Source: an uncultured Clostridia bacterium
GTDB lineage: Bacteria; Bacillota; Clostridia; TANB77; CAG-465
NCBI GenBank assembly: GCA_944388575.1
Contig: CALXJF010000002.1
Span: 10,163-74,162, forward strand
Length of the DNA stretch: 64,000 nt
Direction: 5' to 3'
The translations under genes were made by a program, and so were the position numbers. This document shows positions 5,350 to 46,063 of this stretch, one piece after another (within the stretch, counting starts at the first letter, position 1; the number at the start of each line of letters is the position of its first letter). Below the pieces are notes generated by a model, which saw nothing but the letters and a program-made list of their open reading frames with translations, ran no database searches and was not told the origin of the DNA.

Positions 5350-5356
5350 TTAGTGA

Positions 5357-8529: not shown

Positions 8530-8819
8530 TGATAGGAGATGTATTATTAGGAATAGTATCATTATGTACATTAATTTCCTACTTACCACAAGCAATTAAA
8601 CTAGTTAAAACAAAAAAATCAAATGACTTAAGTACAACTTCTTGGATAATATGGGTTGTAAGCAGTTTTTCATATTCATTATATGCATTTTTATGTTCTG
8701 ATGAATTTATGTTAAAATTTGAAACAACACTAGAATTTTCTTTTTGTTTACTAATACTATTATTGACGATAAAATATAGAAAAAATAATAAAAGAGAAGG
8801 TGATAAAAATGATAAATAA
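8529..8819 (+). CDS. SemiSWEET / PQ-loop family transporter
   Basis: 96 aa with three hydrophobic helices and the PQ motif (ISYLPQAIKLVKTKKS). The start overlaps the RhuM stop (TAATG). Confidence 0.7.
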   Translation: MIGDVLLGIVSLCTLISYLPQAIKLVKTKKSNDLSTTSWIIWVVSSFSYSLYAFLCSDEFMLKFETTLEFSFCLLILLLTIKYRKNNKREGDKNDK

Positions 8820-9699: not shown

Positions 9700-9720
9700 G
9701 GAGAGAATGTTATAGAAGAA

Positions 9721-11803: not shown

Positions 11804-11811
11804 TAAATTAG

Positions 11812-11845
11812 AGTAACAGAATATTAAGGTATTTTGTTACTTTTT
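11812..11845 (+). terminator. Rho-independent terminator
   Basis: agtaacagaata / tattttgttact hairpin followed by tttt. Confidence 0.6.
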
Positions 11846-12026
11846 CATACTTGATATAAAAAATAACAATAAATATGATAGTAAATCTTTTGTTTAGTAT
11901 ATATAAAAAATGATAAATTTGGCGTTTAAATTAGCTTTATTTTTAATATTTTTCTTGATATTTGAGTATTTATATAATATAATATGATTATTGTATTATA
12001 CCTAAAAGAAAGGTTAAAGATAAAGT

Positions 12027-12911: not shown

Positions 12912-12935
12912 TTATTAATAAAAGGAAGGATATAT

Positions 12936-28480: not shown

Positions 28481-29380
28481 ATGTTACAAGTAAAAAGTTT
28501 AGTTAAAAGTTTTGGTGAGATTAAAGCAGTTAATAACATTTCTTTTGAGGTGAAAAATGGAAGAATATTTGGACTGCTTGGAAGAAATGGGGCAGGAAAA
28601 TCTACTATTTTTAGGACAATTCTTAATATAATATCTCCAGATTCTGGAAAAATACTATATAATAATAAAATAATCGATGATAATATATCTAATGAAATTG
28701 GATATTTACCAGAAGAAGGTAGTCTTATTTTACAATATACAGTTTTAGAGCAATGTATTTATTATGGATGCTTAAAACAGATGAGTCAAAGTAGAATAAA
28801 AGAGGAATTGCTTAAATGGCTTCAAAGATTTAATATTACACAATATATGAATACAAAATTAAAAGATTTATCAAAAGGAAATAGACAGAAAATCCAATTT
28901 ATAATAGCTATACTTCATGATCCAAGTTTACTTATACTTGATGAACCTTTTTCGGGTTTAGATCCAATTAGCGTAGAAGAACTTAAAAGTGTAATTTTAG
29001 AGCAAAAGGCTTTAAATAAAATGATTGTGTTTTCTTCGCATAGAATGGATCATGTTGAACAAATATGCGATGATATATTAATTTTAGATAAAGGAAATGA
29101 AATTATATCAGGAGATTTACATGAGATAAAAAAACAATATTCGAAGCAAAATATTAGTATTGTAGGTGATTTTGATATTCATAAGTTAAAAAGTGTATCA
29201 GGCATAGAAGATATATCTATTATAGATAAAAATGAATATGTTATAAAAATAAATGATGAAAAAGCTATAAATAAGATTTTAAATGTTATAAAAGACGATA
29301 AGGTATTAAAATTTTCATTACTTGATATATCTCTTAATGATATCTTTATAGAAAGGATAGGAAAAGGCTATGAAGAGTAA
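28481..29380 (+). CDS. ABC transporter ATP-binding protein
   Basis: Walker A GRNGAGKST, signature LSKGNRQK, Walker B LILDEP. Confidence 0.9.
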   Translation: MLQVKSLVKSFGEIKAVNNISFEVKNGRIFGLLGRNGAGKSTIFRTILNIISPDSGKILYNNKIIDDNISNEIGYLPEEGSLILQYTVLEQCIYYGCLKQMSQSRIKEELLKWLQRFNITQYMNTKLKDLSKGNRQKIQFIIAILHDPSLLILDEPFSGLDPISVEELKSVILEQKALNKMIVFSSHRMDHVEQICDDILILDKGNEIISGDLHEIKKQYSKQNISIVGDFDIHKLKSVSGIEDISIIDKNEYVIKINDEKAINKILNVIKDDKVLKFSLLDISLNDIFIERIGKGYEE

Positions 29381-31595
29381 AATTTTTAATGTGGTAAGAT
29401 ATACTGTAGAAAAAAATATTAGAAATAAATGGTTTATAATTCTTAATATATTGTTATTATTAGTTACTATAGTTGCCTTTAATTTTAATACGGTTAAAAA
29501 TATACTTAAGAATAATAATATTTCTTTTGGAGATAAAACACAGATAATTGTATTAGATAATAATAATTTAATATATGATTATTTAAATGAAAAATTTACT
29601 TTAAATAGTGATATTGAATTAATACAAGAAACTGAAAATAAAGAATATACAAAAGATAATGTAGAAAATAATCAAGTAATTGTTACTGTAGAAGAAGATG
29701 ATTTGGATGTAAAAGCTAAAGTTATATCACAAGAAGGAGTTAATGCAAATTATATACAAATAATAGAAGATGCTTTAAAAGAGGCAAAAGAGAAAAAGTA
29801 TGCATCTACTTATAATATTGATTTAGATACTTTAAATAAATTAAAAGAACAGCCTGAAATAGAGAGAATTATGTTAGGCGTAGACAACAATAATACAGAT
29901 AGTAAATATGCTATGCAAACGGTATTTAATTATATTATATTTTTTATTTTATTGTTAATATTATCTAAAATAGCTAACGATATATCACAAGAAAAGATAA
30001 ATAAAAGTATTGAATATGTCTTAACAAGTATTAGTGCTAAGGGATATTTAATAGCAAAGGTATTAAGTATTAATCTAACATTTATAGTTCAAATTGTATT
30101 TACTATGCTATATTTCTTAGTTGCCATGCTTATTAACTCTATACTAAATATGTATATATTAGGGCCAAGTTTAGACATACAAACAGTAGATTTAACGAGT
30201 ATATCTACTTTTGTAGATACAAATTTAATTATATATTGTATAATAGCGTTTATATATTTATTATTAACTATATTTATTCTTTGCATTATACAGGCTATTT
30301 TCTCTTCAAAAACAACAAATATAACTGAGGCTGGTAATGCAACTGTTATATTAATAACAGCAAACTTAATAATATATATGTTATCTACTTTTTTAGTTAC
30401 ACCTTTAAAGGCCCCAACTATAATTTCATATATAGTATCTTGTATTCCAATTGCTTCGATGTATTTTGTACCTACTATGGTACTTTTAGGACAGGCAAAT
30501 ATAATACAAGTAATAATAGCTACTATATTGTTAATTCTATCAGGAATTTTACTTGTAAGATATGGTGCTACATTTTTTAAAAATGGAGTACTTGATTATA
30601 GTAATAAAAAATCTAAAAAAAATAAAGAAGATGAAGATGTTATTGAAGTACAAAAGCAAAAGATTGCTAAAACAGAATATAGTAAGATAGGATATGTTTT
30701 AGGTTTTTCTGTAATATTATTTATATTATTACAGTTAATATTTACATATATATTACAGATTTTAAATGTTCCATTATATAATATTTTAAATAAAAGTATA
30801 TCTTTAGAAACAATAGAAACTATTACACGTATGATATCTTTTGTTATATCTTTGATTGTTCCAGCTTTATTTGTGATGTCATATAGTGAAAAAGAAAAGA
30901 TAGAGAAATGTAATAAAAAGAGTTATTTTAAATATGTTTTAATTGCTTTACCACTAGTATTAATAGTTCAAATCGTTGTTGGAATTATACTTGAGAGAAT
31001 TGGTCTTAATTACGACGTACTAGATAAAGTTAATATGTTTAATGATAAAACTATAATTGGTAAAGTGTTATTCTTTATTGAAGTAGCAGTCCTTCCTGCA
31101 ATTTTTGAAGAATTTTATATAAGAAAAGCAGTATTAAATTATACTAAAAAGTATGGAATATGTTTTGCTGTAATTGCATCGTCGTTACTTTTCTCTGTTG
31201 TTCATTTTAATTTATCACAAATGTTATTTGCATTTATAATGGGAGTAATACTATCAATTATAACATTAAAAACAAATAGTATAGTTCCATCAGGTATGAT
31301 ACACTTACTTAATAATGGGTATGCTGCTTTGGTTATGATATTTGAAAGTAATAATATTGTTTTAGGAATTATAAACATTATATACTTTTCTTTAATATTA
31401 ATTGGAATAGTATTAATCATTATTGAATTAGTCAAAAATAAAGGGAAGTTTATAAAGATAAAAAACACAGTAAAAAAAGAAAGTAACATTATGAAAAAAT
31501 ATAGATATATTTTTTGTGATTATACTTTTATAATTGGTATTATAACTTGTGCAGTTTTATTAGTTGCAACCCAAAAGTTACTCATGATTTTATAA
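29370..31595 (+). CDS. ABC-2-type permease fused to a CPBP (CAAX/Abi) intramembrane protease domain
   Basis: 741 aa and polytopic. The N-terminal half has an ABC-2-like layout (TM1, large loop, then 5 TM helices). The C-terminal part carries CPBP motifs EEFYIRK (EExxxR), FSVVHF (FxxxH) and HLLNN. Overlaps the ATPase gene by 11 nt. Confidence 0.65.
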   Translation: MKSKIFNVVRYTVEKNIRNKWFIILNILLLLVTIVAFNFNTVKNILKNNNISFGDKTQIIVLDNNNLIYDYLNEKFTLNSDIELIQETENKEYTKDNVENNQVIVTVEEDDLDVKAKVISQEGVNANYIQIIEDALKEAKEKKYASTYNIDLDTLNKLKEQPEIERIMLGVDNNNTDSKYAMQTVFNYIIFFILLLILSKIANDISQEKINKSIEYVLTSISAKGYLIAKVLSINLTFIVQIVFTMLYFLVAMLINSILNMYILGPSLDIQTVDLTSISTFVDTNLIIYCIIAFIYLLLTIFILCIIQAIFSSKTTNITEAGNATVILITANLIIYMLSTFLVTPLKAPTIISYIVSCIPIASMYFVPTMVLLGQANIIQVIIATILLILSGILLVRYGATFFKNGVLDYSNKKSKKNKEDEDVIEVQKQKIAKTEYSKIGYVLGFSVILFILLQLIFTYILQILNVPLYNILNKSISLETIETITRMISFVISLIVPALFVMSYSEKEKIEKCNKKSYFKYVLIALPLVLIVQIVVGIILERIGLNYDVLDKVNMFNDKTIIGKVLFFIEVAVLPAIFEEFYIRKAVLNYTKKYGICFAVIASSLLFSVVHFNLSQMLFAFIMGVILSIITLKTNSIVPSGMIHLLNNGYAALVMIFESNNIVLGIINIIYFSLILIGIVLIIIELVKNKGKFIKIKNTVKKESNIMKKYRYIFCDYTFIIGIITCAVLLVATQKLLMIL

Positions 31596-33408: not shown

Positions 33409-34707
33409 TTATTCCGTTTTATTATCTTCTGTTTTTGCAAAGACTTCATCCTTGTTAAAACATTCGACGATTTGACACATTGCATTAATATGATATTTCA
33501 TATTAACTATTTGAGATAAGTACTCTGGATAATATAACTTCCCATAAGTACAAAGAGGATCAATAAAGTTATGTCCTTCGTCAAGATATTCTGCTAATTC
33601 GTCTAGAGAATAAGAAGTTAAAATAGTACAAGTATTAGCTCTATTAGATAATTTTATTAATAAAGCTTGAGGATTTTTTTTCAAATTCTCATAGTATATT
33701 TCCTTGCTTATTGCTTCATCACGCGATACAAGTTTAATTAATTCTAAAACTTCTGGATCAAGTTTATATGTTTCAATTAATTCATTACCGCCATTTGGAA
33801 GATCACATTTTTTTAATACTTCGTGAAGAAGAGCTGCCGCACAAGTAACATCGTTACTTAAATTCAAAGAAATCAAGTAGGAACATACTCTAAGTGGATG
33901 TATTATAAAGGGATCTCCACTTTTTCTAAGTTGGCCTTGATGAAAGCGCTCTGCAAGAGCTAATGCAATTAAAGTGTTATGCATTTTTCTGGCAGTAGCA
34001 AATCCTCTAATAAACAATAATGTCTTTTTATATCTATTCGGATTATATGAAGTATGTTTATTAAATAATGAGGATATTGTTTCACAAATGGATACTATAT
34101 GGTATTTTATAATAGTAACAGCATTTGAAAGTTCAGGATAATATTCTTTTGCATAAGCACATAAAGGATATATAAGGTCAACTGTTTCTTCAACGTAAGA
34201 TATTAGCTTGTCCTTAGTAAAAGCTTCAACCATAGTGGAACAATTATTTGTTCTGTCAGCTAGTTTTATAATAAGGGCCCTTTTGTCTTCTTTAATTTTA
34301 TCGTAATAAATATTTTCTGGTATACCTTTTTTCTTAGTCAATAATAAAACGATATCAACTACTTCTTTTGGAAGATTATAATGATCAATAAATTCTTTTC
34401 CGTCATATGGAAGATTACAATCTTCAATAACATCATGAAGAATAGCTGCAGCGCAAGTAATATCGTCATCTATTTTAAGATTGATAAGGTATGAAGTTAC
34501 TTCTAAAGGATGAATTATATAAGGTTCACCACCTTTTCTAAATTGCCCTTTATGATAGTGCTTAGCAATACCAAGTGCTATTAGTGTATTATTCATTCCT
34601 TTTCCGATTGCGTATCCTTTGATAAAATTATAAGTTTCTTCCCAGTTATTAAAAGAGCTAGCATGAACTGATAACGTTACATTTTTTTTAGAATCTTTAT
34701 TGTTCAT
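33409..34707 (-). CDS. Protein with two tandem SpoT/RelA-type HD (pyrophosphohydrolase) domains and no synthetase domain
   Basis: The two halves are clearly paralogous: HKGQFRKGGEPYIIHPLEVTSYL...CAAAILHDVIED...LIIKLADRTNN and HQGQLRKSGDPFIIHPLRVCSYL...CAAALLHEVLKK...LLIKLSNRANT. Confidence 0.7.
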   Translation of the reverse strand: MNNKDSKKNVTLSVHASSFNNWEETYNFIKGYAIGKGMNNTLIALGIAKHYHKGQFRKGGEPYIIHPLEVTSYLINLKIDDDITCAAAILHDVIEDCNLPYDGKEFIDHYNLPKEVVDIVLLLTKKKGIPENIYYDKIKEDKRALIIKLADRTNNCSTMVEAFTKDKLISYVEETVDLIYPLCAYAKEYYPELSNAVTIIKYHIVSICETISSLFNKHTSYNPNRYKKTLLFIRGFATARKMHNTLIALALAERFHQGQLRKSGDPFIIHPLRVCSYLISLNLSNDVTCAAALLHEVLKKCDLPNGGNELIETYKLDPEVLELIKLVSRDEAISKEIYYENLKKNPQALLIKLSNRANTCTILTSYSLDELAEYLDEGHNFIDPLCTYGKLYYPEYLSQIVNMKYHINAMCQIVECFNKDEVFAKTEDNKTE

Positions 34708-35458
34708 TTTTATACCCCTTTCTTACTAAAGATTGGCTATATGTTTCTTTTGCACATATTATATAATTTATAATTATTATAGTCAACTAAAATTTGGAAA
34801 AATATATTAAATTTTTAACTAATTTCTTAATTATAAAAAGTATATATGCCTTAAAATTATTCTAAAAGTTGTATATAAAGTAAAAATATATTGTGAATAT
34901 GTTATACTGAAAGTGTAATTATTTATGCAGTGTTATATTAATTAAAAAAGAAAATAGTAAGTACAAAATTAAAATAAATTCCAAGACAAAAAGTAGAAAT
35001 AAAAAATGTATAAGATTTATCTATTTTAATATTTATTTATATTTTGGTACCGTCTAACATATTTATTATTTTATGTATATTTTTATTATTTTATTTCAAT
35101 TTCATCTTCTTATATAGGCTTTTCAATTGCTTTAGCTATTAATTCTTAAGCAAAATATTTTTAAGCATTTTTATTACACTTTAGATTTTTTTAGTCATAG
35201 TAGAATATATATTTTTTTAGTTGTTTCTTAAAATCATTTTTTTATTAATACATCAAAAAAGTGATGTATGTGATCTTGAATAAAAAATTAACTGATTATT
35301 TTTTTTAACATAGTTACAGCAGTTTTTTCAACTATATTTATTATTTAAGTATATAAAAATATTGAACCAAAAATTATTTTTCTATTTAATATTTTTTTAC
35401 TTCTTTTTCAGCAATCTAAAATTAAAATTGATTTTTTTATGTTAGTATATTATAATAT

Positions 35459-36020
35459 TTGAGTAAAATAGAAATTCATTTAGATAGATTGGAAAAACAT
35501 TATGGAAAATATGATTTTTATAGATTATTTAATTTTACATGTATAATAAGAAAGAATGGTATATGTAAAACAATAAAAAAAGAAAATATAGAAATTATAA
35601 TATTTGAAAATTTATATGATAAAAATTTTAAAAAATATAATCTGGAGGATATATATAATCTTTATAATAATTATGGGGAAAATATTTATTATTTAGATGT
35701 AATCTATTCATTAATTATAATAGATTATAAATTAAATAGATTATTTATTTATCAAGATTTTTTTGGCGTAACCAAAATATATATTTCTTTTATAATCAAA
35801 ATAAATTATTCATTTCTAATAAATTAAAAGAAATTATTAATCAAAATGAATATGAATTTAGAATTAATTATAAAGTTATAAGACAGTTTTTAAAAAATGG
35901 TTATATTGTAGGTAAAGAGACTTTAGTAAAAAATATATATAAAGTTCTAAATAAAAAATATTTAGTAATAAATTTAAAAACTAAATTTATAAATTTAAAA
36001 AATTTTTTTATAACATATTA
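35459..36020 (+). pseudogene. Relic of an asparagine synthase (AsnB-like) gene
   Basis: LEDIYNLYNNYGENIYYLDVIYSLIIIDYKLNRLFIYQDFFGVTKIY follows the AsnB glutaminase-domain pattern (D.E.i..lY...G....l.G.Fa..i.D.....l...RD.fG.KPLYY). It continues in another frame as ...IRQFLKNGYIVGKETLVKNIYKVL. The catalytic N-terminus and the synthetase domain are missing. Confidence 0.55.
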
Positions 36021-36148
36021 AAAAGATTTTTATTGTAGAACAAAAAAAATATTTGAATGGGAATTTTAACGGTTATAATTTAAAAGATTATTTTACTGAT
36101 ATAAAAAATGTAAAAAATAACAGTAGAATTAAACAAGGAGGCAAGTAA

Positions 36149-37420
36149 ATGAAAGTTATAATTATTGGATTAGGATATGTAGGATTGCCTATAGCAATTT
36201 CTTTTGCCAAAAAATATGATACTTATGGTTTTGATATTAATGAAACTAAAATACAAAAATATAAAGAGGGGATTGATTTAACTGAAGAGGTGGGAAGTGA
36301 TGAATTGAATAATACACATTTACACTTTACAAGTAATTCTGAAGATATAAAAAAAGCTGATGTTATTATCATTACAGTACCAACCCCAATTGATAAAAAT
36401 AATAAACCTAATTTAAGTGATTTAAAAAATGCAACAAATATGGTAGCAATGAATTTAAAAAAAGGTAGTATAATTATTTACGAATCAACAGTATATCCAG
36501 GAACTACAGAAGAAGTTTGCGTTCCTATTATAGAAAAAGTTTCTGGATATATATACAATAAAGATTTTTTTGTAGGTTATTCTCCAGAAAGAATTAATCC
36601 TGGTGATAAAAAACATAAGTTTGAAAATATCAAAAAGATAGTATCTGGATCTAATTATGAAGTTACTGAAAAGATTGCTGATTTATATCAAAAATGTTTA
36701 GTACGTAAACCTGTTAAAGTTTCATCTATAAAGGTTGCTGAAGCAGCAAAAATAATTGAAAATTCACAAAGAGATATAAATATTGCTTTTATAAATGAGA
36801 TATCAAAAATATTTCATATTATGAATATTGATACTTATGAAGTTTTAGAAGCAGCTTCTACAAAATGGAATTTTTTAAATTTTAAACCTGGTTTGGTAGG
36901 TGGACATTGTATAGGAGTTGATCCATATTATTTAGCCTATAAAGCAAGAAAAATGAATTTTAATCCAAAGGTAATTCTCTCAGGAAGAAAAATGAATGAT
37001 TCTATGGGATATTATATAGCTGAAAATATAAAAGAGAAGATACTGGCTCATGATTTATCTCTTGAAAATTCTAATGTTTTAATAAAAGGTTTAACTTTTA
37101 AAGAAAATGTAAATGATATAAGAAATTCAAAAGTTATGGATATCATAAAATATTTAAAAAAAGAAAATATAAATGTATATTTAGAAGACAAGCATGTAAA
37201 TAATTTTGAATTAAAAAAAATGTATAATTATTCATTGAGTAACAATATACCAAAAGTTGATGTAGTTGTTTTTGCTGTTAAGCATAAAGAATATTATAAT
37301 ATGAATATAGAAGATTTAAATAATTTATATGATAATAAATACAAAATAGTATTTGATATACACGGGATATTTAATAAAAATGAATTATTAGAAAGGGGAT
37401 TTGAAGTATGGAGATTATAG
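36149..37420 (+). CDS. UDP-N-acetylhexosamine 6-dehydrogenase (TviB/WbpO-like nucleotide-sugar dehydrogenase)
   Basis: N-terminal Rossmann IIGLGYVGLP. The catalytic-Cys motif GGHCIGVDPYYL is typical of the TviB/WbpO subgroup. 423 aa. Confidence 0.8.
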   Translation: MKVIIIGLGYVGLPIAISFAKKYDTYGFDINETKIQKYKEGIDLTEEVGSDELNNTHLHFTSNSEDIKKADVIIITVPTPIDKNNKPNLSDLKNATNMVAMNLKKGSIIIYESTVYPGTTEEVCVPIIEKVSGYIYNKDFFVGYSPERINPGDKKHKFENIKKIVSGSNYEVTEKIADLYQKCLVRKPVKVSSIKVAEAAKIIENSQRDINIAFINEISKIFHIMNIDTYEVLEAASTKWNFLNFKPGLVGGHCIGVDPYYLAYKARKMNFNPKVILSGRKMNDSMGYYIAENIKEKILAHDLSLENSNVLIKGLTFKENVNDIRNSKVMDIIKYLKKENINVYLEDKHVNNFELKKMYNYSLSNNIPKVDVVVFAVKHKEYYNMNIEDLNNLYDNKYKIVFDIHGIFNKNELLERGFEVWRL

Positions 37421-38379
37421 ATATAGATCAAAAATATAATGTTTTAATAACAGGAGTTGCAGGTTTTATTGGTTCAAATTTAGCTGAAGCATGTTTAGAG
37501 TCGGGATTTTATGTTAGAGGGATTGATAATTTTTATAATGGAAGAAGAGAGAATATTACAGAATTATTAAAAAATGAAAAATTTGAATTTGTTGAAGGAG
37601 ATATTTGTGATTATAAATTATGTGAGAGTATTTGTAAAGATATTGATTTTGTATTTCATGAAGCTGCATGGGGAGCGGTTCCAAAATCAATTATACAACC
37701 GTTAGACTATACAAAAAATAATATATTAGGTACACATAACATTCTGCATTCTGCTTATATGAATAATGTAAAAGGTGTAATATATGCTTCATCTGCTTCA
37801 GTTTATGGTGATAATGATGATAAAGTTAAAATTATTGGAAATGAAGGTAATGTATTATCTCCATATGCACTTAGTAAAAAGGCAAATGAAGAAACAGCTT
37901 TATTATATTATAACTTATATGGATTAAAAACGGTAGGATTGAGGTACTTTAATGTTTTTGGTAGGAAGCAAAATCCATATTCTGAATATTCTGCAGTTAT
38001 ACCAAAGTTTATAAAAGCTATTTTAGAAAATAAAGAAATAAAAATAAATGGTGACGGAGAACAAAGTAGAGATTTCACATATATTGATAACGTTATTGAG
38101 GCTAATTTGAAAGCATGTATGTCTATAAATAATGCTGCTGGACAAGTTTTTAATGTAGGTTTTGGTGAAAGCACATCTGTTAATAAATTATATAATTTAA
38201 TAAGCAATTTATTAAGAAAAGAGACAAATGTAAAATATGTCCCTGAAAGAAAAGGAGATATAAAAAATTCATTATCAGATATAAGTAAAACTAAAATGGT
38301 TTTAGAATATAATCCAAAATATAGTATACAAGATGGTTTGGAAAAAACAATTGAGTGGTACTTAAAGAATTTAAATTAA
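37408..38379 (+). CDS. NAD-dependent nucleotide-sugar 4-epimerase (TviC/WbpP-like)
   Basis: ITGVAGFIGSNL Rossmann motif and YALSK (YxxxK) catalytic motif. Overlaps the dehydrogenase gene by 13 nt. Confidence 0.8.
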   Translation: MEIIDIDQKYNVLITGVAGFIGSNLAEACLESGFYVRGIDNFYNGRRENITELLKNEKFEFVEGDICDYKLCESICKDIDFVFHEAAWGAVPKSIIQPLDYTKNNILGTHNILHSAYMNNVKGVIYASSASVYGDNDDKVKIIGNEGNVLSPYALSKKANEETALLYYNLYGLKTVGLRYFNVFGRKQNPYSEYSAVIPKFIKAILENKEIKINGDGEQSRDFTYIDNVIEANLKACMSINNAAGQVFNVGFGESTSVNKLYNLISNLLRKETNVKYVPERKGDIKNSLSDISKTKMVLEYNPKYSIQDGLEKTIEWYLKNLN

Positions 38380-38412
38380 AAAAATTTTTAATATTAATAA
38401 AGGAGTAGTTTT

Positions 38413-39504
38413 ATGAAGATTTTAATTGGAGTATGTGGAATAGGCAAAGGTCACTGTATTAGACAATATGAATTGAGTAGAGAACTAATAAAGAATGGGC
38501 ATGAAGTAAGAATATTTACTTATGGTGAAGGAATAAATTTTTTTTCGAATAGTAAAATGAAAGTTTATGATGTATATGTGCCTATGATTACATTTAAGGG
38601 AGATAAAATTAATGTATATGATTGTATAAAAAGAAATTGGTTAAAAATTATTCCTGGAAAAATACATAATAATAATATTTATAGAGAATTATTAAGAGAA
38701 AATTTTTTGCCCGATTTATGTATTAGTGATTACGAACCAACTGTTGCAAAAATCGCATATAAATTAAATAAACCATTAATAAATATTGATCAACATAGTA
38801 AATTTATTTATATGAATGATACTATAAATGGTTATTCAAATATAGAAGAAAAAAGAAGATTACAATTCTTCTTTCCTAAATCAGATAAAAAATTTGTTGT
38901 TTCTTTTTATGATTTACCTAAAGGCATGTTACCTAATAATATTGAGCTTTTGTATCCTATAATAAGAAATGACTTAAAAGAAATCTCCAAACAAGTAAAT
39001 AGTAAGAAAAAACAAATTTTAGTATATTTCTCAAAATATATAGATATTCCTATAAAACAGAGTATGGAGGAAATAATAAAGATATTTAATAGTTTTAAAA
39101 ATTATAATTTTATAATTTTTTCAACAGAATATGCTAAAAGTGGTGAAAAAATAAAAGAAAATGTTACTATATTGAAAAATCAAAGAGAAAGATTTGTTAA
39201 GGAATTAATAAATTCATGTGCTGTTATTAGTACAGCAGGTCATACTTTAATATCAGAGGCATTATATTGCAATATTCCTTTGTTTGTAATCCCTTTGCCA
39301 ACATATGATCAAAACTATTGCGGTAAATTTATAAATGATAACCAAATAGGTTATTCTTCAGATTTGATTACTATTAAAAATTTAAGTAAATTCTTAAATA
39401 ATATAGAAATGTATAGAAATAATATAAAAAAATGTGAAAATTTAGTTAAGGAAATGAATACCTTGAAATATTTGGTATCAAAAATTGAAGAATATGAAAA
39501 ATAA
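38413..39504 (+). CDS. GT-B fold glycosyltransferase (MurG/GT28-like, MJ1255-type)
   Basis: N-terminal GIGKGHCIRQ..L...L...GHEV. The C-terminal STAGHTLISEALYCNIPLFVIPL......Q..C matches the GT28/GT1 donor-binding region. Confidence 0.65.
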   Translation: MKILIGVCGIGKGHCIRQYELSRELIKNGHEVRIFTYGEGINFFSNSKMKVYDVYVPMITFKGDKINVYDCIKRNWLKIIPGKIHNNNIYRELLRENFLPDLCISDYEPTVAKIAYKLNKPLINIDQHSKFIYMNDTINGYSNIEEKRRLQFFFPKSDKKFVVSFYDLPKGMLPNNIELLYPIIRNDLKEISKQVNSKKKQILVYFSKYIDIPIKQSMEEIIKIFNSFKNYNFIIFSTEYAKSGEKIKENVTILKNQRERFVKELINSCAVISTAGHTLISEALYCNIPLFVIPLPTYDQNYCGKFINDNQIGYSSDLITIKNLSKFLNNIEMYRNNIKKCENLVKEMNTLKYLVSKIEEYEK

Positions 39505-39524
39505 AAATATAAAGTAATGAAAAA

Positions 39525-39793
39525 GTAATTTTTTTGATTAGTAATTTATGTAGTTTTAGATGTAAAAGATGCTTTGCATATACTGGTAAAAAAAGAAAAA
39601 ATAAAATAACTATATAGTAAAAAAACAAGTCCATAGATAGTTTTAAAAATTAGGTGCAGAAATAATATCTTTTAGTGCTGGTGAACCATTAATGGGTAGA
39701 AATCAATATATAGAATACTCTAAAAAGAAGAATATAAAAATTGGGTTCTTAACTAATGTTGTATTATTAGATAGAGAAAAAAGGTTGGAATGA
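39525..39793 (+). pseudogene. Relic of a radical SAM gene (paralog of the N-terminus of 39855-41741)
   Basis: VIFLISNLCSFRCKRCFAYTG (CxxxCxxC) is followed by stops. Another frame gives GAEIISFSAGEPLMGRNQYIEYSKKKNIKIGFLTNVVLLD (decayed GGEPL and TNG motifs). Confidence 0.6.
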
Positions 39794-39854
39794 GATTGGT
39801 ATGTCCAATCGTTTATGAGAAAATTAGAAAGTAAAAATTTAAAGGGGGTAATTT

Positions 39855-41741
39855 ATGAAATTAGAATATAAATCAAAATACTATTATACTGATTATGCTA
39901 AAATATATAGAGAAAAGGGAAGTTTTTATAATGTTAATGAAAACCCAACACTTGTTGTTCTAAAGCCAACACTAAATTGTATTGCTAATTGTAAGCATTG
40001 TAATCCTAGAAGTAAAAAATTTTCTACTAATAAAAGAATATCTTTACTAGAATATGATAAATTGTTAAAGAAATTAAAAATTATGGGAACAGAGCAAATT
40101 TGTATTAGTGGTGGTGAACCTTTAATATATAAAGATATTGTAAAACTAGTTAGATTAATTACTAAAAATGGTCTTAAAGCATCTTTAAATACTAATGGTT
40201 GGTTTTTAAACTTTAATATGTTTAAAGAATTAATGAATGCTGGTCTTTTATGTATAAATTTATCAATTGATTCTCCTAGAGCAGAAGAACATGATAAATT
40301 ACGAGCTTTAGATGGCTTATTTGATAGAGCTATAAGCCAAATAAAAGAATGTAAGGAAAGTGACATTCCTTTTAAATTAAATTTAAGAATGGTATTATCA
40401 AAATATAATTATAAAGAAATATCTGAAATGATAGATTTAGCAAATAATATAAAATCAGATATTTTGAGCATTGATATGATAGAGGCAGATTCAAAAGAAA
40501 AGAATTTTTTATTAGATTCTAATCAAATAAATGACTTTAAAAATAATTATGTACCAGAATTAATAAAAAAAATTAATAGTTTAGATATAAACGAAAATTT
40601 AAAGTCTTATAATATTAAACAAGTTAAAGATTTTTTTAATACAGAATTTAATAATATTAAAAATTTTGAGAATGGTTTTTATTGGCCAGATGATACAATA
40701 AAAAGAAAGTGTGATATTCCAAGTTCATTTATGATAATTGAAGGTGATGGTATGGTGTTGCCTTGTAATGCAGTAGAATATAATAGAGAATATATAATAG
40801 GAAATATATTAGAAACAGAAATAGAGGAATTATGGAAATCTGAAGAATGGAAGAATTTTAGAAATAAAAAGATGGACTTTTGTAGAGAGTGTCCAATGAA
40901 TATGAGTTATATGATAGTTTTTAATGATGATAAAATAGAAAGAGATTGTAAAATAGAAAAATTTACTACTAAAAAAATAGAAAATATGATAAAAATTAAT
41001 AAAAATAATGACTATTATGAGGAACGTAAAGAAGAATATTTTAAATTTTTTAACAAAGGAAACGAATTTATAGATAAAATAAGTAAAAAATATCCAATTG
41101 ATTCTTTAGAATATAAAACAGAATTTTTATATCCTAACTTTTTTGATAAAATGGATTCTAATAAAATAATATTTGAAAGTTATAGTAATGCATCTGAATA
41201 TTATTCATTAAGACAATTATTAGGAAGACCAGAAAAGTTTGAAAAACAACTTGAAATATTTGATTTTATGGAAGAAAATTTATCAAAAAATTCAATTGTT
41301 ATGGATTATGGATGCTGTGTTGGTGATTTTTCTATATTATTTGCAAGAATGGGATATAAAGTATTAGCGATTGATTTAGATATTGATACTTTTAATTTTG
41401 CAAAAAAAAGATTCGTTGATAGAAATTTAGATATTACATGCTATAGTGTTTTAGAAGATATGAAATTACCAAAATTATTTCAAAAGGTTAATTTTATATT
41501 TTGCAGAGATGTTTTAGAACATACTGTCAACCCACTAGAAGTGTTAACGTTCTTTTATAAAACTTTAACAGAGGATGGATATATGTATATTTCTACAATG
41601 AATCCAGGTGAGGAAATATATATAGGAGCTGAACATCTAGAAGATACAATAAAAAAAGCACAGAGTAGGGAATATAAAGAATTTTTTGAAAAGCACTTTA
41701 TTAGCTTAGGAATACACGGATTATATAAAAAAAGAATTTAG
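39855..41741 (+). CDS. Radical SAM (SPASM/twitch-like) enzyme fused to a class I SAM-dependent methyltransferase
   Basis: LNCIANCKHC (CxxxCxxC), ISGGEPL and NTNG. Auxiliary Cys region CDIPSSFMIIEGDGMVLPC...FCRECP. The C-terminal part has MTase motif I VMDYGCCVGDFS...VLAIDLD. Confidence 0.7.
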   Translation: MKLEYKSKYYYTDYAKIYREKGSFYNVNENPTLVVLKPTLNCIANCKHCNPRSKKFSTNKRISLLEYDKLLKKLKIMGTEQICISGGEPLIYKDIVKLVRLITKNGLKASLNTNGWFLNFNMFKELMNAGLLCINLSIDSPRAEEHDKLRALDGLFDRAISQIKECKESDIPFKLNLRMVLSKYNYKEISEMIDLANNIKSDILSIDMIEADSKEKNFLLDSNQINDFKNNYVPELIKKINSLDINENLKSYNIKQVKDFFNTEFNNIKNFENGFYWPDDTIKRKCDIPSSFMIIEGDGMVLPCNAVEYNREYIIGNILETEIEELWKSEEWKNFRNKKMDFCRECPMNMSYMIVFNDDKIERDCKIEKFTTKKIENMIKINKNNDYYEERKEEYFKFFNKGNEFIDKISKKYPIDSLEYKTEFLYPNFFDKMDSNKIIFESYSNASEYYSLRQLLGRPEKFEKQLEIFDFMEENLSKNSIVMDYGCCVGDFSILFARMGYKVLAIDLDIDTFNFAKKRFVDRNLDITCYSVLEDMKLPKLFQKVNFIFCRDVLEHTVNPLEVLTFFYKTLTEDGYMYISTMNPGEEIYIGAEHLEDTIKKAQSREYKEFFEKHFISLGIHGLYKKRI

Positions 41742-41750
41742 GAGATAAAT

Positions 41751-42353
41751 ATGGAAAATAAAAAATTGATTGTTCTAGAAGGAATTTCTGGCGCCGGAAA
41801 AAGTACAAATATACAGCTTCTTACAAGTAATGAAAGAAAAATAGATGGTATCAATATAAAAATTAGTAAATTGATGGAAAATATTGAAAAAACTAATTAT
41901 ATAGATTATACTAATACTAAATACTTTTTGTTATTAGAAAATTTAAAAACTATATTATATGAGGATTCAAAGAAAAATTTCGTATTATTTGAGAGGTATT
42001 ATCTATCGACACTAGCGCATGTATATGCAATGAGTATTTTAAATAATGATAAAAAAATATATAAAGATATATTAGAATGGTACCAAAACAATATAGGTAA
42101 TACAATAAAAAAACCTAATGCTTATATATTTTTTAATGTTCCTATTGAAGTTTCTATGCAAAGAATAAAAAAAAGAAATGAGAGTGTTGTTAATGATATT
42201 TGGATAGAAAGACAATATATGCAATTATGTGAAGAGTATAAGAGAAGTTTTATAAATCAATATGAAAAAGATGTAAAAATATTTAATATAGATGCTACTA
42301 GAAGTATTTTAGAAGTGTATAATGAAGTATTAGAAATTATAAAAAATATATAA
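41751..42353 (+). CDS. Thymidylate/deoxynucleoside kinase-like P-loop protein (divergent)
   Basis: LEGISGAGKST Walker A, ERYYLSTLAHVYA (compare Tmk DRY..S..AYQ) and a late MQRIKKR. It lacks the REPGGT substrate motif of true Tmk. Confidence 0.5.
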   Translation: MENKKLIVLEGISGAGKSTNIQLLTSNERKIDGINIKISKLMENIEKTNYIDYTNTKYFLLLENLKTILYEDSKKNFVLFERYYLSTLAHVYAMSILNNDKKIYKDILEWYQNNIGNTIKKPNAYIFFNVPIEVSMQRIKKRNESVVNDIWIERQYMQLCEEYKRSFINQYEKDVKIFNIDATRSILEVYNEVLEIIKNI

Positions 42354-42378
42354 AATATAAAAAATATAAGGAGGTATT

Positions 42379-43962
42379 ATGAGTAGGAAAATTATTATAG
42401 GTGGTGCATGGCCTTATGCAAATAGTTCTTTACATTTAGGACATTTAGCAGCTTTAATATCTGGTGATATTTTGGCAAGATATCACAGACTAAAAGGCGA
42501 TGAAGTCATTTTTGTATCTGGTACTGATTGTCATGGAACACCGATTACTGAGACTGCAAAGAAAGAAAAAGTAAGTCCAAAAGATATTGCCAATAAATAT
42601 CATAAAGAGTTTTTTGAAGTATTTAAAAAAATGAATTTTTCATATGATTTATATACTAGTACTGAAGATGAATATCATAAAGAAAAAGTAATGGATTTGT
42701 TTAGAAAAATATATGATAATGGTTATATTATAGAAAAGATAGACGAGGATAATTATTGTGAGAAGTGTAAGAAATTTGTTGCTGATAGAGAACTTAAATT
42801 GAAATGTCCTAATTGTGGTAATGAAACAAAAGGAGATCAATGTGATTGTGGTTATGTACCTACAAAAGAGGATTTAAAAAGAGCATTTTGTAACGAATGT
42901 GGTAATTTAACAACTACTAGAGAAAATAAAAATCTATATTTAGAATTACCAAAGTTACAATTAGAAATAGAAAAGTATGTAAATAAAAATAAAAATAAGT
43001 GGAGAAAAAATGCCCAGAATGAAACTGATAAGTATTTAAAAGAAGGATTGAAAGAAAGAGCAGTTACAAGAAATTTAGATTGGGGGATAGATATACCAGT
43101 AAAAGGCTTTGAAGATAAAAAAATGTATGTGTGGATAGATGCCGTTTTTGGGTATTTAACAGCTACAATGAAATATTGTGAGAATAATAATTTAAACTTT
43201 GATGAATGGTGGAAAGGAAATAGTGAAAAAAATATAATTTATATGGTACATGGAAAAGATAATATTGTTTTTCATTCAATAATTTTTCCAGCTCTACTTA
43301 TTGGATTAAATGAAAATATTCACTTACCTGATATAATGGTTTCAACTGAGTATTTGAACTTTAATGATCAAAAATTTTCTAAAAGTAAAGGTATAGGACT
43401 AACTATTATAGAAGCGTTAGATAAATTTGATACTGAAACTTTAAGATTTCATTTAATAAAAAATGGACCAGAAACTAAAGATGCTAATTTTACAGAAGAA
43501 GATTATATATTAACACATAATGAAATTACTAATAAATTAGGTAATTTCGTTAATAGAACATTGAAATATAAAGGTTTATCTATACTTCCTCATGGAAAGT
43601 TAGATTTAAATGTTGAAAGCTATATTAAGAAAAAATATTTGGAAATTTCAGGCTTTATAGAACATATAGAATTTAGGAAAGCAGCACTTAGTATAATAGA
43701 ATTATTAGACTTTGCTAATAAATATTACGATGACCAGAAACCATGGATACAAATTAAAGAAGATATAAATAAATTTAATGATACAATATATACATGTGCA
43801 ATTATAATAGCAAATATAGCTAATTTAATCGAACCTTTTATGCCTATAACAGCTCAGAAGATAAGAGGATATTTACAGTTAAAAGAAAACAATTGGGAAT
43901 ATATAAATTATATATATAATGTTAGTTTAACTGATATTTATCCTTTATTTGAGAGAAAATAA
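42379..43962 (+). CDS. Methionine--tRNA ligase-type class I synthetase, short form without a C-terminal tRNA-binding appendix
   Basis: PYANSSLHLGH (HIGH), GTDCHGTPI, zinc-knuckle cysteines, YVWIDAVFGY, HGKDNIVFHSIIFPALL, KFSKSKG (KMSKS), GNFVNRTL and DDQKPW. Confidence 0.85.
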   Translation: MSRKIIIGGAWPYANSSLHLGHLAALISGDILARYHRLKGDEVIFVSGTDCHGTPITETAKKEKVSPKDIANKYHKEFFEVFKKMNFSYDLYTSTEDEYHKEKVMDLFRKIYDNGYIIEKIDEDNYCEKCKKFVADRELKLKCPNCGNETKGDQCDCGYVPTKEDLKRAFCNECGNLTTTRENKNLYLELPKLQLEIEKYVNKNKNKWRKNAQNETDKYLKEGLKERAVTRNLDWGIDIPVKGFEDKKMYVWIDAVFGYLTATMKYCENNNLNFDEWWKGNSEKNIIYMVHGKDNIVFHSIIFPALLIGLNENIHLPDIMVSTEYLNFNDQKFSKSKGIGLTIIEALDKFDTETLRFHLIKNGPETKDANFTEEDYILTHNEITNKLGNFVNRTLKYKGLSILPHGKLDLNVESYIKKKYLEISGFIEHIEFRKAALSIIELLDFANKYYDDQKPWIQIKEDINKFNDTIYTCAIIIANIANLIEPFMPITAQKIRGYLQLKENNWEYINYIYNVSLTDIYPLFERK

Positions 43963-43976
43963 GGAAAATTTATAAA

Positions 43977-44879
43977 ATGAAAATAATAATAAATGCTGAT
44001 GATTTTGGTATTGACATAGATAGAGATTTAGGAATTTTTTATGGTGTTATAAAAGGATATGTTACTAGTGTTAGTATAATTGTAACCAATAAAATTGGAT
44101 GGTTTAGAAAATTATTAGTTTGCATTATGAAAAAAAAAGCTAGTATAGGAATTCATATTAATTTAACAGACAATCCATTATTAAAATATACTATGGAGGA
44201 ACTTTGTTTAAAAAATTACAATTATGAACGCAGAAAGTTTTCTTTTTGGAGAAATTCAATTGATAGTACATTGAATTTTAAAATGATTGATGAAGAAATA
44301 AATATGCAATTTGAAAAATTTATTAAGGAATATGGGTTTATACCAAATCACATTGATGGCCATAATCATTGTAATATTTTTAATAAAAAAGTCGAAGAGT
44401 TATTTGAAAATATTTCTATTAAATATAAAATTCATTTAAGAATACCATATGAAGATTTGGAAAAGTTTGATAAGAAACTTTTAAGTAAAAATACTTTTTT
44501 TAAAGACTTTAAAATATTGGATGATAAAATGGATATAAATTATATAAGAGATAGATTAGATTATTTTTTTAAATATGATATGAATTTAAATAATTATATG
44601 TGTATTATGAATTGTCAAAAAGATAAAATATATTATATAGGTACTATGTATGGATATTTTAGAAACTCTAATGTTTTATTAAAACAATTATCTAATATTG
44701 GAAATATTGATTGTGTACAAATAATGACACATCCTGGATTTTATTGGAAGAATATGAAGCATAAGACTGTATTTTCAAATTATGATAGAAAAACGGAATT
44801 GGATAGTTTAAGGGATTTTAAACTAAATTCTATATATTTACAAATAGATTATACAAATTATAATTTTTATCAAAATTAG
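43977..44879 (+). CDS. YdjC/ChbG/HpnK-family carbohydrate deacetylase
   Basis: N-terminal IINADDFGI and the later HIDGHNH motif are typical of YdjC-like proteins. Confidence 0.7.
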   Translation: MKIIINADDFGIDIDRDLGIFYGVIKGYVTSVSIIVTNKIGWFRKLLVCIMKKKASIGIHINLTDNPLLKYTMEELCLKNYNYERRKFSFWRNSIDSTLNFKMIDEEINMQFEKFIKEYGFIPNHIDGHNHCNIFNKKVEELFENISIKYKIHLRIPYEDLEKFDKKLLSKNTFFKDFKILDDKMDINYIRDRLDYFFKYDMNLNNYMCIMNCQKDKIYYIGTMYGYFRNSNVLLKQLSNIGNIDCVQIMTHPGFYWKNMKHKTVFSNYDRKTELDSLRDFKLNSIYLQIDYTNYNFYQN

Positions 44880-45040
44880 GTGCTATGTTTTATTTAGAAA
44901 TTTTCCCCTCCAACTATTGACATTGAACACTAAATTAAAAAGAATATAATGCCTAGGCTTTGACAAGGTACTAAAAAATTAATATTTTTGTGATTTTTTC
45001 TAATATTATTTGCATTGTTGTTGAAAAAGTAACACAAAAA

Positions 45041-45076
45041 AGTGAATCGTAAAATAATTTTTGATTCACTTTTTTT
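45041..45076 (+). terminator. Orphan rho-independent terminator
   Basis: agtgaatc / gattcact stem followed by a T7 run. No intact ORF lies directly upstream. Confidence 0.55.
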
Positions 45077-45599
45077 ATATACTTAATGATATAATAAACA
45101 TAATTAAAAGAGTGAATATAACTATGTTAAAAGAAAATAATCATTTTTTTGTTTAAGCTCACATGCATTATTTGTTTGATTTATTAATAAAAATATAATT
45201 TCTGGAAACTACTAAAAGATATGAGTGATTTTTCTTTTGTGTATTACGAATTAAAAAGTAAATATCCTTCTACAACTGTTATAAAAATCAAAGAAGTTAT
45301 AAAATATGTTTAAATATTTTGCTTAAAAATTAATAGCTAAAACAGTTGAAATGTGTATACTATAAGAGAAATTTTAAATAAGATAGTATACTTAAAAGCG
45401 TGAAAGTATAGAAGATGTAATAGTTTTTACAATAAAAATATAAATGAAATAATAAATATATTATAAGAAACATGAACAATACTAAGAAATAAGCAATTAT
45501 ATTGTATTATAGAAAATGTGAAAAATTAAATTTTAATATTTATGTAATATACATAATTAATGGCGAATTTATTCTTTATAAAAAAAGGAGATTATTAGA

Positions 45600-46063
45600 A
45601 TGAATATACGATTAGCAAATAGCAATGATATAGAAAAAATAAATGCTATTATAAATGACCTAAATAATGTAAAAAAATTTTGCAAATTTGAAAGTGATAT
45701 TTTAAATAAAGAAATGTATATTATGTAAGAAAATAATTATATAATTGGCATTTTGTATTAAGTAAGCTTGATTACCCAGATTATAAAGATATAGAATGGA
45801 CTTCTAATAATAAGAGTTTTTTTTATTTAAATAGATTAGCAATACTTCCTTTGATATAGGGAAAAGGTTTTGCAAAGAAGGCAATGGAGTTTATTATAAA
45901 GTATGCTATCGATAATAGATATGACTGTATTAGATTAACAGTTTATAATAAAAATAAAAGTGCTGCTATTGGATTGTATGAAAGACTTGGATTTAAAAAA
46001 ATAGCAAATGGTTATTGGCAACTTGAAGACAAAGTATTTGTTGGCTATGAAAAATATGTATAA
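45600..46063 (+). pseudogene. GNAT acetyltransferase pseudogene (two in-frame stops and one frameshift)
   Basis: MNIRLANSNDIEKINAIIN...YIM*ENNYIIG, then a frameshift, then FVLSKLDYPDYKDIEWTSNNKSFFYLNRLAILPLI*GKGFAKKAMEFIIKYA...LGFKKIANGY. Confidence 0.8.

Follow-up and report, generated by a model that had tools for sequence, protein, structure and literature searches.

The stretch of DNA analysed here, referred to as the window (64,000 nucleotides from an uncultured Clostridia bacterium), carries between positions 36149 and 44879 an island of seven plus-strand open reading frames (ORFs) in which a gene for methionyl-tRNA synthetase (MetRS, metG) stands among genes for sugar-nucleotide oxidation, glycosyl transfer, de-N-acetylation and radical S-adenosylmethionine (SAM) chemistry. 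The island belongs, in partly eroded form, to a conserved family of biosynthetic gene clusters in low-GC Firmicutes that has not so far been described. That this family is real and that the MetRS is functionally tied to it we hold with high confidence. It is also probable that the cluster specifies a cytoplasmic small-molecule pathway rather than a surface glycan. Taken as a whole, the reading that we lean towards, at somewhat better than an even chance, is a small-molecule pathway in which a canonical MetRS provides immunity and/or a supply of methionine, in the manner of AbmK in albomycin biosynthesis.

Organization of the island

The seven ORFs are, in order:

36149..37420, plus strand, UDP-N-acetylhexosamine 6-dehydrogenase, TviB/WbpO-like (three UDPG_MGDP_dh domains; TviB 428 bits)
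37408..38379, plus strand, short-chain dehydrogenase/reductase (SDR) 4-epimerase, TviC/WbpP-like (PF01370 E 1e-56; TviC 263 bits; 13-nt overlap with the dehydrogenase)
38413..39504, plus strand, GT-B glycosyltransferase of the MJ1255/VC2487 (PF13528) family (PF13528 E 6e-39)
39855..41741, plus strand, radical-SAM/SPASM enzyme fused to a class I SAM methyltransferase (Radical_SAM, SPASM and Methyltransf_23 domains)
41751..42353, plus strand, P-loop kinase resembling thymidylate (dTMP) and deoxynucleoside kinases (PF02223 39 bits; TIGR00041 50 bits)
42379..43962, plus strand, canonical MetRS of the PRK00133, archaeal-eukaryotic-like type (TIGR00398 442 bits; Anticodon_3)
43977..44879, plus strand, YdjC-family (ChbG-like) carbohydrate de-N-acetylase (PF04794 E 3e-31)

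Here and below model scores were judged against curated cut-offs (in bits: TviB 592, TviC 760, TIGR00041 83, TIGR00398 336, ChbG 227, HpnK 233, HpnH 225, TIGR04466 400 and MshC 485). After the initial 13-nt overlap the ORFs are separated by 33, 350, 9, 25 and 14 nt, and AT-rich flanks of 1.44 kb and 1.53 kb enclose the set. The GC content falls to 14.7% at 35001-36000 and 19.8% at 45001-46000 in DNA that is about 25% GC with a strong GC skew. An initial annotation, made from the sequence alone, had given exactly these coordinates and spacings and flanks of about 1.4 kb and 1.5 kb; its family assignments for the seven genes agree with the domain and model scores. Contigs from several metagenomes carry a MetRS identical to that of the window together with near-identical island genes.

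No membrane-spanning segment is predicted in any island protein and all look soluble. A promoter scan is uninformative in DNA of 25% GC (124 sites against 121 expected) and no terminators were found. Rfam models detect neither a methionine T-box nor a SAM riboswitch before the cluster or metG in the window and eight related loci, and regulatory coupling through such elements is rejected on that basis; in one locus, L102, T-boxes occur only before the tyrosyl-tRNA synthetase (TyrRS) gene and the gene after it.

Linkage of MetRS to the cluster

Relatives were found by using the radical-SAM/SPASM gene or the glycosyltransferase as an anchor and then reading the neighbourhoods, which are designated by L numbers. 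Other species have the same set of genes at 57-80% identity. In about 10 of 14 island lineages (the window; L014/L015/L099; L047; L093-95; L098; L100/L101/L108; L102; L109; L110; L112) a co-directional MetRS gene lies inside the cluster or at its end. The hosts span at least two classes, with class A RNase P RNA in L047 and class B in L100, and at least six gene orders occur around MetRS:

kinase, MetRS, YdjC: window, L014, L015
kinase, YdjC, MetRS (8-nt overlap in L093): L047, L093-95
IucA-like protein, YdjC, MetRS: L098, L109
glycosyltransferase, YdjC, MetRS: L100/L101/L108, L102
YdjC, MetRS, methyltransferase, GNAT: L110
ATP-grasp, MetRS, Ugd: L112

The outer flanks differ in every lineage and include CotJ, RecU, PgsA, RelA, valyl-tRNA synthetase with the str operon, restriction-modification systems and recombinases. 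The prospect, raised in the initial annotation, that no relative would share the adjacency is dispelled by these lineages, and three types of MetRS are involved. That of L109 is a full-length PRK12267-type enzyme (887 bits) with a tRNA_bind domain, 25-28% identical to the PRK00133-type MetRS of other islands, and is accompanied by island proteins that are 41-55% identical to those elsewhere. The MetRS of L112, a locus of the cultured Mammaliicoccus sp. I-M36, shares 57-63% identity with metG borne on Bacillus plasmids and only 40-43% with other island MetRS. Three MetRS lineages within one cluster family are more than inherited synteny can explain and imply selection for having MetRS in the cluster; the non-orthologous types and the varied gene orders likewise lead us to reject chance adjacency or pure synteny. 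Staphylococci normally use a PRK12267-type MetRS, and the linked enzyme of Mammaliicoccus, which is PRK00133-like and encoded on a contig with ParA and a resolvase, is likely to be an extra copy. The same is likely for the MetRS of L109, beside conjugation genes. In the window's genome the linked MetRS is probably not an extra copy.

Two side observations concern the Bacillus relatives of the L112 enzyme. Thirty-five Bacillus records in PLSDB hold a metG matching the Mammaliicoccus cluster MetRS. On one B. cereus plasmid (L114; pRML02, NZ_CP011157.1 87742-113358) the metG, 60% identical to that MetRS, is divergent from another biosynthetic-looking set consisting of an adenylate-forming enzyme, a pyridoxal phosphate (PLP) decarboxylase, an acyl carrier protein, aminotransferases, an acetyltransferase and an ATP-binding cassette (ABC) transporter.

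Could metG be no more than a housekeeping neighbour? The locus might make a surface glycan or glycolipid by the UDP-N-acetylgalactosaminuronic acid (UDP-GalNAcA) chemistry of Vi antigen or P. aeruginosa O6, with linkage arising from shared ancestry or from use of metG as a homology arm for locus exchange, like the housekeeping flanks of capsule loci. TviB and TviC are the best models for the first two genes, and the MetRS is canonical, is interleaved with orthologues from island-less genomes and remains after island loss, as described below. Between L100 and L102 the island proteins are 52-60% identical and the MetRS 75%, a pattern that would suit a fast-diverging glycan locus at a fixed address and that is ambiguous because island proteins plateau at 50-60% identity, so that vertical descent with loss is inseparable from horizontal exchange. 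Shared ancestry, however, cannot account for the PRK12267-type MetRS of L109 or the Bacillus-plasmid type of L112, MetRS lies inside the cluster in three arrangements, and the other flank is never conserved. A glycan locus also fits poorly with the absence of a flippase, polymerase, priming transferase or other membrane proteins, with the natural-product GT1-like fold predicted for the glycosyltransferase, and with the nonribosomal peptide synthetase (NRPS) module, ATP-grasp ligases and major facilitator superfamily (MFS) transporter of the Mammaliicoccus version. We regard a glycan locus beside a housekeeping gene as unlikely, and ancestry or locus exchange as an unconvincing source of the linkage to a like degree.

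The island MetRS

The enzyme scores well above the cut-off of the metG model and matches PF09334 with E 4e-127. It retains HLGH at residue 19, KFSKS at 332 and CxxC pairs of zinc knuckles at 127, 143 and 171. The anticodon-binding domain gives PF19303 and PF08264 matches and includes 'DDQKPWIQIK', which aligns with P. abyssi MetRS (PDB code 1RQG). The two proteins align end to end, and 1RQG and human cytoplasmic MetRS (5GL7) are the closest solved structures. There is no C-terminal tRNA_bind domain. The other linked MetRS keep the class I motifs and zinc knuckles, with the strict KMSKS pattern unmatched in L047 and L112 (KISTS in L112). All keep the anticodon domain and L109 keeps tRNA_bind as well.

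Orthologues of 86, 79, 78, 75, 70 and 63% identity occur in unrelated housekeeping contexts devoid of island genes, with neighbours that include MreB and YchF, or the leucyl- (LeuRS), arginyl- and isoleucyl-tRNA synthetases. Relatives of the window's MetRS come from metagenome-assembled genomes (MAGs) whose labels are Clostridia, Clostridium sp. CAG:343 or CAG:273, and Candidatus Scatovivens; the window's host is accordingly an uncultured gut lineage of low-GC Clostridia in the CAG-343/CAG-273 group. In a tree of 84 sequences, built by neighbour joining without bootstrap, the island-linked MetRS are scattered among island-less orthologues and form no separate paralogous clade; that of the window is sister to the enzyme of L013, an island-less species. 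In L013 a kinase relic, 'IEKTKYIDYTSTKYF', lies at 9903-9977, 24 nt before the metG start codon, and in island-less L023 a C-terminal YdjC relic, 'DDT..I...GFY.N', lies at 8017-8130 directly upstream of metG. These relics show recent loss of the island. With such debris beside metG in island-less sisters, the island appears ancestral in these sub-clades and to have been lost repeatedly, the MetRS being kept each time, which is the behaviour of an essential gene. In the window's lineage the cell most likely also relies on the cluster-borne MetRS for its translation, which would account for the enzyme's ordinary look and its persistence where the island is gone, and for its staying intact whilst three accessory genes decayed.

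The initial annotation had seen in this protein a MetRS-type ligase in the sense of MshC, the cysteine ligase of mycothiol synthesis. On such a view an ATP-dependent enzyme withdrawn from translation would join methionine to a deacetylated amino sugar, giving a conjugate like mycothiol or bacillithiol. Across all versions of the cluster together (the pan-cluster) there are analogues for all five mycothiol steps, namely a glycosyltransferase, a phosphatase (His_Phos or NT5C-like), a deacetylase, an aminoacyl-tRNA synthetase (aaRS)-type enzyme and a GNAT, and MetRS-like domains act as small-molecule ligases in hydrazine synthetases (PMC12376268). A dedicated ligase is nevertheless difficult to reconcile with the full anticodon-binding domain and catalytic motifs of every linked MetRS, with the tree, in which the window's enzyme is not set apart in a ligase clade, with retention of the gene by relatives that have lost the island, or with the 17 bits that the MshC model gives for the window's enzyme (cut-off 485). 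The MshC comparison was misplaced for a protein that keeps HLGH, KFSKS, the zinc knuckles and KPW, and we judge a dedicated ligase improbable.

Further loci are noted for their MetRS genes. Each of two MAGs, Lapin-022__bin14 and Lapin-005__bin118, carries a pair of same-type MetRS loci, each on its own contig (L020/L036 and L042/L059); identities to the window's enzyme are 71% and 62% in one MAG and 61% each in the other, and the pairs represent either real duplication or bin contamination. In L010 (MetRS 70% identical) metG lies amid unrelated glycan genes at 1682-9963 and 11808-15320, which encode a pyruvyl transferase, GT2 and GT1 glycosyltransferases, an ABC-2 exporter and YfhO.

Composition and mobility of the cluster family

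The invariant core comprises the PF13528 glycosyltransferase, YdjC, the radical-SAM/SPASM enzyme, the SAM methyltransferase and the SDR epimerase. Variable parts include the UDP-N-acetylhexosamine (UDP-HexNAc) dehydrogenase, a second radical-SAM enzyme, the nucleotide-kinase-like protein, NT5C-like or histidine phosphatases, NUDIX and APH-like proteins, GNATs, and an AsnB-like amidotransferase and/or a 404-409-residue protein with weak IucA/IucC and FhuF similarity. Judged by family, the AsnB-like and IucA/IucC-like proteins would be carboxylate-activating amide formers. Fusions of glycosyltransferase to radical-SAM/SPASM enzyme (P0162, P0166), of radical-SAM enzyme to methyltransferase (window) and of methyltransferase to kinase (L106) suggest functional coupling of the core genes.

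The cluster of Mammaliicoccus sp. I-M36 occupies part of a 28-kb, plasmid-like contig that also encodes ParA and a resolvase, and it includes an MFS transporter, a 982-residue A-T-C NRPS module, two ATP-grasp ligases, the dehydrogenase and MetRS; a third, weak ATP-grasp-like protein is encoded on the opposite strand. The cluster and MetRS of L109 adjoin a TraG/VirD4 coupling protein, a Toprim protein and a MobL relaxase, and ABC exporters flank L106 and L111. These exporter, NRPS, ligase and conjugation or plasmid genes belong to the relatives, and none is within the window's island. Neither the island nor 13 related loci contain Wzx/Wzy, a flippase, a polymerase, ABC export genes or a priming transferase. 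Together with the soluble proteins and the GT1-like glycosyltransferase model, this bears out the initial annotation, which had found no Wzx/Wzy or initiating phosphotransferase and argued against an ordinary capsule or O-antigen locus.

The initial annotation had also failed to match the gene combination to any described pathway. The combination is coherent and conserved in other species, and full-text literature searches (YdjC with radical SAM, glycosyltransferase and MetRS; MJ1255, TIGR00661 and PF13528) returned no description of it. Among PLSDB plasmids megablast finds no close relative, and a protein search yields only radical-SAM genes of Streptomyces, about 27% identical and located in unrelated sugar clusters.

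Two other identities for the island were considered and rejected. The kinase and nucleotidase genes, and a Shimazuella locus beside prophage tail genes, raised the possibility of a phage-borne DNA-hypermodification module; a search of IMG/VR found no relative, and elsewhere the cluster lies in chromosomal or conjugative surroundings. Genes for large serine recombinases closely follow metG or the island in L014 (14688-18304), L015, L047 (12237-13947) and L052 (11936-13615). An excisable element was considered for L014, L015 and L047, but L052 is island-less and carries the same recombinase after metG, so the recombinase is not cluster-specific.

Certain loci have features of their own. In L014 and L015 cotJA and cotJB lie directly upstream of the island, with no cotJC seen. 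L103 is a minimal four-gene version (radical-SAM enzyme, methyltransferase, glycosyltransferase and YdjC) between two copies of tRNA-Ser(TGA), at 34-121 and 6690-6779, an arrangement that looks like integration at a tRNA gene or a circular contig. L097 (7819-22277, GC 54%) is a distant and far more elaborate relative of the core, with a fusion of glycosyltransferase to radical-SAM/SPASM enzyme, three more radical-SAM genes, a B12-binding radical-SAM gene, a sulfotransferase, a methyltransferase and a fusion of PIG-L to glycosyltransferase.

The sugar, radical-SAM and kinase proteins

TviB is the best model for the dehydrogenase, at a score below its cut-off, and TIGR03026 matches at 392 bits, above its own. 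The protein would make a UDP-HexNAc-uronic acid. TviC, the best model for the epimerase, is likewise below its equivalog cut-off, and these scores (428 against 592 bits and 263 against 760) place neither protein within the Vi-type capsule or O-antigen equivalogs. Several versions of the cluster (L096, L103 and L110) have no dehydrogenase gene, which marks the dehydrogenase as an accessory part.

The AlphaFold2 model of the glycosyltransferase is of high predicted quality (mean predicted local distance difference test score 94, predicted template modelling score 0.91). Its best PDB neighbours are GT1 enzymes of natural-product or UGT type, namely UGT109A1, YjiC, the kitacinnamycin glycosyltransferase, SpnP, GtfD, CalG1-3, LanGT2 and OleD, and polysaccharide or lipid-carrier transferases are not among them. 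On the strength of this model the acceptor is probably a small molecule.

The radical-SAM/SPASM enzyme has its CX3CX2C motif at residues 42-49. Its best solved relative is the cytosylglucuronate decarboxylase BlsE (7VOB; E 1e-14, 57 bits), and at 70 bits against the BlsE equivalog TIGR04466 (cut-off 400) it falls outside that group, yet it may work in a similar way. BlsE decarboxylates a hexuronic-acid nucleoside (PMC3715490). Elsewhere the radical-SAM and methyltransferase parts are encoded separately or, in L106, the methyltransferase forms a fusion with the kinase.

By score the kinase-like protein is not a housekeeping Tmk (TIGR00041 50 bits, cut-off 83), and its gene accompanies the cluster in L014, L047, L093, L099 and L106. 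The YdjC protein reaches 94 bits with ChbG and 35 bits with HpnK, both below the cut-offs. The initial annotation had drawn a parallel with HpnI/HpnJ/HpnK of hopanoid head-group synthesis. This is mere resemblance, as HpnK and HpnH (61 bits against 225) both fail and the glycosyltransferase belongs to PF13528 and not to GT2.

Erosion of the window's copy

Three pseudogenes accompany the seven ORFs:

35609..36054, plus strand, AsnB-like glutamine amidotransferase (tblastn with L014:1443-2975)
39519..39862, plus strand, second radical-SAM enzyme, in the 350-nt gap (tblastn with L014:6413-7420)
45582..46060, plus strand, GNAT N-acetyltransferase, its frame broken in three, with GNAT motif A, 'GKGFAKKAM', retained

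The AsnB-like relic consists of two frame-shifted pieces, 63% and 43% identical to the query (E 3e-31). The intact gene, encoding 496-510 residues with Asn_synthase and GATase_7 domains, heads the cluster in L014, L015 and L093-95. Two pieces of the radical-SAM relic span residues 7-96 and are 50-57% identical (E 2e-15); the gene is intact in L014, L047, L093, L098 and L106, where the product has 333-335 residues and no SPASM match. For the GNAT relic a gene call on an identical contig gives a weak FR47 match, and intact GNATs occur downstream of the cluster in L102, L110 and L096. The initial annotation was right about all three relics, as tblastn with the intact genes of relatives and the broken frame of the GNAT demonstrate. 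The window thus shows a cluster in decay with an essential gene left behind.

Proposed pathway and possible role of MetRS

Soluble proteins, the GT1-like model, a relative of BlsE, the NRPS, ATP-grasp and MFS genes, conjugation genes and exporters together point to a mobile specialised-metabolite cluster acting on a small cytoplasmic acceptor. UDP-GlcNAc would be oxidised and epimerised to a UDP-HexNAc-uronate, and the soluble glycosyltransferase would move the sugar onto the acceptor, for which the kinase, nucleotidase and NUDIX genes of the pan-cluster hint at a nucleoside or nucleotide. YdjC would then expose the 2-amine and the radical-SAM/methyltransferase pair would remodel and methylate the sugar. 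In complete versions the carboxylate could in addition be amidated and an amine acetylated. MetRS, as a tRNA-charging enzyme, might supply activated methionine to acylate the freed amine. Alternatively or additionally, it might keep translation going against a product that mimics methionyl-adenylate, as an immunity copy. By analogy with known clusters the chances that MetRS serves as immunity factor and/or methionine donor are about even. That the product inhibits MetRS is a tentative suggestion. Equally speculative is the fuller form of this idea, in which gut and animal-associated Firmicutes would make an amino-sugar or nucleoside antibiotic that mimics methionyl-adenylate and represents the first class of natural product directed at MetRS, with MetRS as the immunity gene and possibly the methionine donor.

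Several observations weigh against a small-molecule pathway with MetRS as donor or immunity factor. Four island lineages have no linked MetRS: L096 (Shimazuella), L103, L106, where the contig ends nearby, and L111. Within the window's clade the MetRS branches in line with the MetRS of island-less relatives, as a plain housekeeping gene would, and island-specific substitutions, sought by alignment, were not found; the differences are conservative and explained by phylogeny, and an altered MetRS function through such substitutions is rejected. The cluster conserves no recognisable aminoacyl-tRNA-dependent transferase and no AbmF-like ligase, which leaves a step using activated methionine without an assigned enzyme. 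Enzymes of TviB/TviC type are familiar chiefly from surface polysaccharides. The window's own copy holds three pseudogenes and in one population variant (L002) the dehydrogenase is frameshifted; this copy may no longer be functional, or may give a simpler product or none.

A different explanation for a co-expressed MetRS is that the cluster hypermodifies tRNA-Met, or some other substrate of the translation apparatus, with a glycosyl or amino-sugar group. This would account for the linkage whatever the type of MetRS and for the nucleotide-kinase-like, nucleotidase-like and NUDIX genes, and the methyltransferases weakly match models of CmoB/CmoM-type tRNA methyltransferases. RNA-binding domains such as PUA, THUMP and TRAM are, however, found in no cluster protein, the exporters, NRPS module and ATP-grasp ligases of some versions fit poorly, the distribution is patchy and mobile, and we know of no sugar-uronate tRNA modification in bacteria. 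An RNA-modification role is in our view highly improbable.

Other genes of the window

Ordinary chromosomal genes in the window include those for LeuRS, a cluster of five tRNAs, RuvB, QueA and QueH, together with pta-ackA, gatA and gatB. Prolyl-tRNA synthetase (57595-59317), between gatA (56120-57580) and gatB (59305-60756), comes as two overlapping ORFs whose frames differ, 57595-58257 with the class II core and 58205-59317 with the editing domain, the remaining core and the anticodon domain. The split is a frameshift, which reflects either a pseudogene or an assembly error. At 7522-8529 a gene for a RhuM-family virulence/Fic-associated protein lies amid housekeeping genes.

Upstream of the island, 28481-31595 encodes a DrrA-like ABC ATPase followed by a 741-residue fusion of an ABC-2 permease to a CPBP/Rce1-like intramembrane protease, a domain often tied to bacteriocin immunity. 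This gene pair sits about 4.5 kb from the island, and a DrrA-like ABC-2 exporter lies upstream of the L106 island too. On the minus strand at 33409-34707, also upstream, is a gene for a 432-residue RelA/SpoT-family protein with matches to the HD hydrolase domain only. The RelA/SpoT protein of L102 (404-1900) has HD, synthetase and TGS domains, and its gene overlaps the first island gene by 4 nt.

Implications

For antibiotics with a defined target, no genomic pointer is more reliable than a gene cluster with its own copy of an essential enzyme, a pattern that the clusters of mupirocin, borrelidin, indolmycin and albomycin follow. MetRS is a pursued drug target and to our knowledge no natural product is aimed at it. 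The family occurs in many uncultured gut Clostridia and Bacilli and in cultured Mammaliicoccus, and is hence directly testable. If the product is directed at MetRS, then the cluster's spread, along with the selection that its product exerts, would help to explain the foreign-type second MetRS on plasmids and mobile elements of Bacillus, Staphylococcaceae and clostridia, and the reliance of reduced-genome gut lineages, such as the window's host, on a cluster-derived MetRS. If instead MetRS donates methionine to an amino sugar, an MshC-like reaction would be carried out by an enzyme still in translation, a snapshot of how such ligases originate.

Comparison with known systems

UDP-GalNAcA is the expected product of the first two island genes, which are of the same type as TviB/TviC of Vi antigen and WbpO/WbpP/WbpS of P. 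aeruginosa. Uronamide formation of the WbpS type has a parallel in the AsnB-like amidotransferase. Unlike those systems, the island lacks genes for polymerisation and export, and both its proteins score below the equivalog cut-offs.

In the blasticidin S and gougerotin type of pathway (BlsD, BlsE), as in the one proposed here, a soluble GT-B enzyme puts a UDP-uronic acid onto a small acceptor and a radical-SAM enzyme then acts on the uronate. Carboxylate amidation and aminoacylation of a sugar amine both occur in this class. The similarity to BlsE is distant on the scores given above, the CMP hydrolase and aminotransferase are not conserved, and the island's sugar would be an N-acetylated amino-uronate deacetylated by YdjC.

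The tunicamycin (tun) cluster has an inventory of SDR epimerases, a radical-SAM enzyme, glycosyltransferase, N-deacetylase, GNAT, histidine phosphatase, NUDIX protein, methyltransferase and ABC exporter (PMC6105854, PMC6965331). The likeness to the island family is one of inventory only. There is no aaRS in tun, and TunD (450-470 residues) and TunE (232 residues) are not YdjC-sized. A tunicamycin-like cluster, compared by inventory and size, was rejected on the differing sizes of TunB, TunD and TunE and on the different deacetylase family.

Mycothiol synthesis (MshA, MshA2, MshB, MshC and MshD) proceeds by HexNAc transfer, dephosphorylation, de-N-acetylation, aminoacylation by a class I aaRS-type enzyme and N-acetylation by a GNAT, and the pan-cluster has candidates for each step in the same order. 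MshC, however, is a dedicated paralogue of cysteinyl-tRNA synthetase whilst the island enzyme is a canonical MetRS. The deacetylase is of YdjC type rather than LmbE type and the glycosyltransferase is PF13528 rather than GT4. The radical-SAM/SPASM enzyme and methyltransferase are without mycothiol counterparts, and methionine yields no thiol.

The albomycin (abm) cluster of Streptomyces, like the island, places a complete aminoacyl-tRNA synthetase gene in a sugar/nucleoside cluster, a likeness in gene inventory. AbmK is a complete seryl-tRNA synthetase (SerRS) that provides seryl-adenylate for acylating an amino-sugar uronic-acid nucleoside as well as immunity for the producer, and the cluster also encodes AbmG, a kinase resembling deoxycytidine kinase, the radical-SAM enzyme AbmJ and the methyltransferase AbmI (PMC9032320). 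The synthetase is a class II SerRS in albomycin and a class I MetRS here; AbmK is a divergent second copy whereas the island MetRS resembles the lineage's ordinary MetRS. The island has no AbmF-like ligase, PLP transaldolase or siderophore NRPS, and its sugar chemistry starts from UDP-HexNAc and uses a GT1-like glycosyltransferase and YdjC. The dedicated MshC-type ligase of the initial annotation is thus set aside, but its logic of glycosyl transfer, deacetylation, aminoacylation and acetylation by a GNAT is still viable, with albomycin as the nearest documented precedent.

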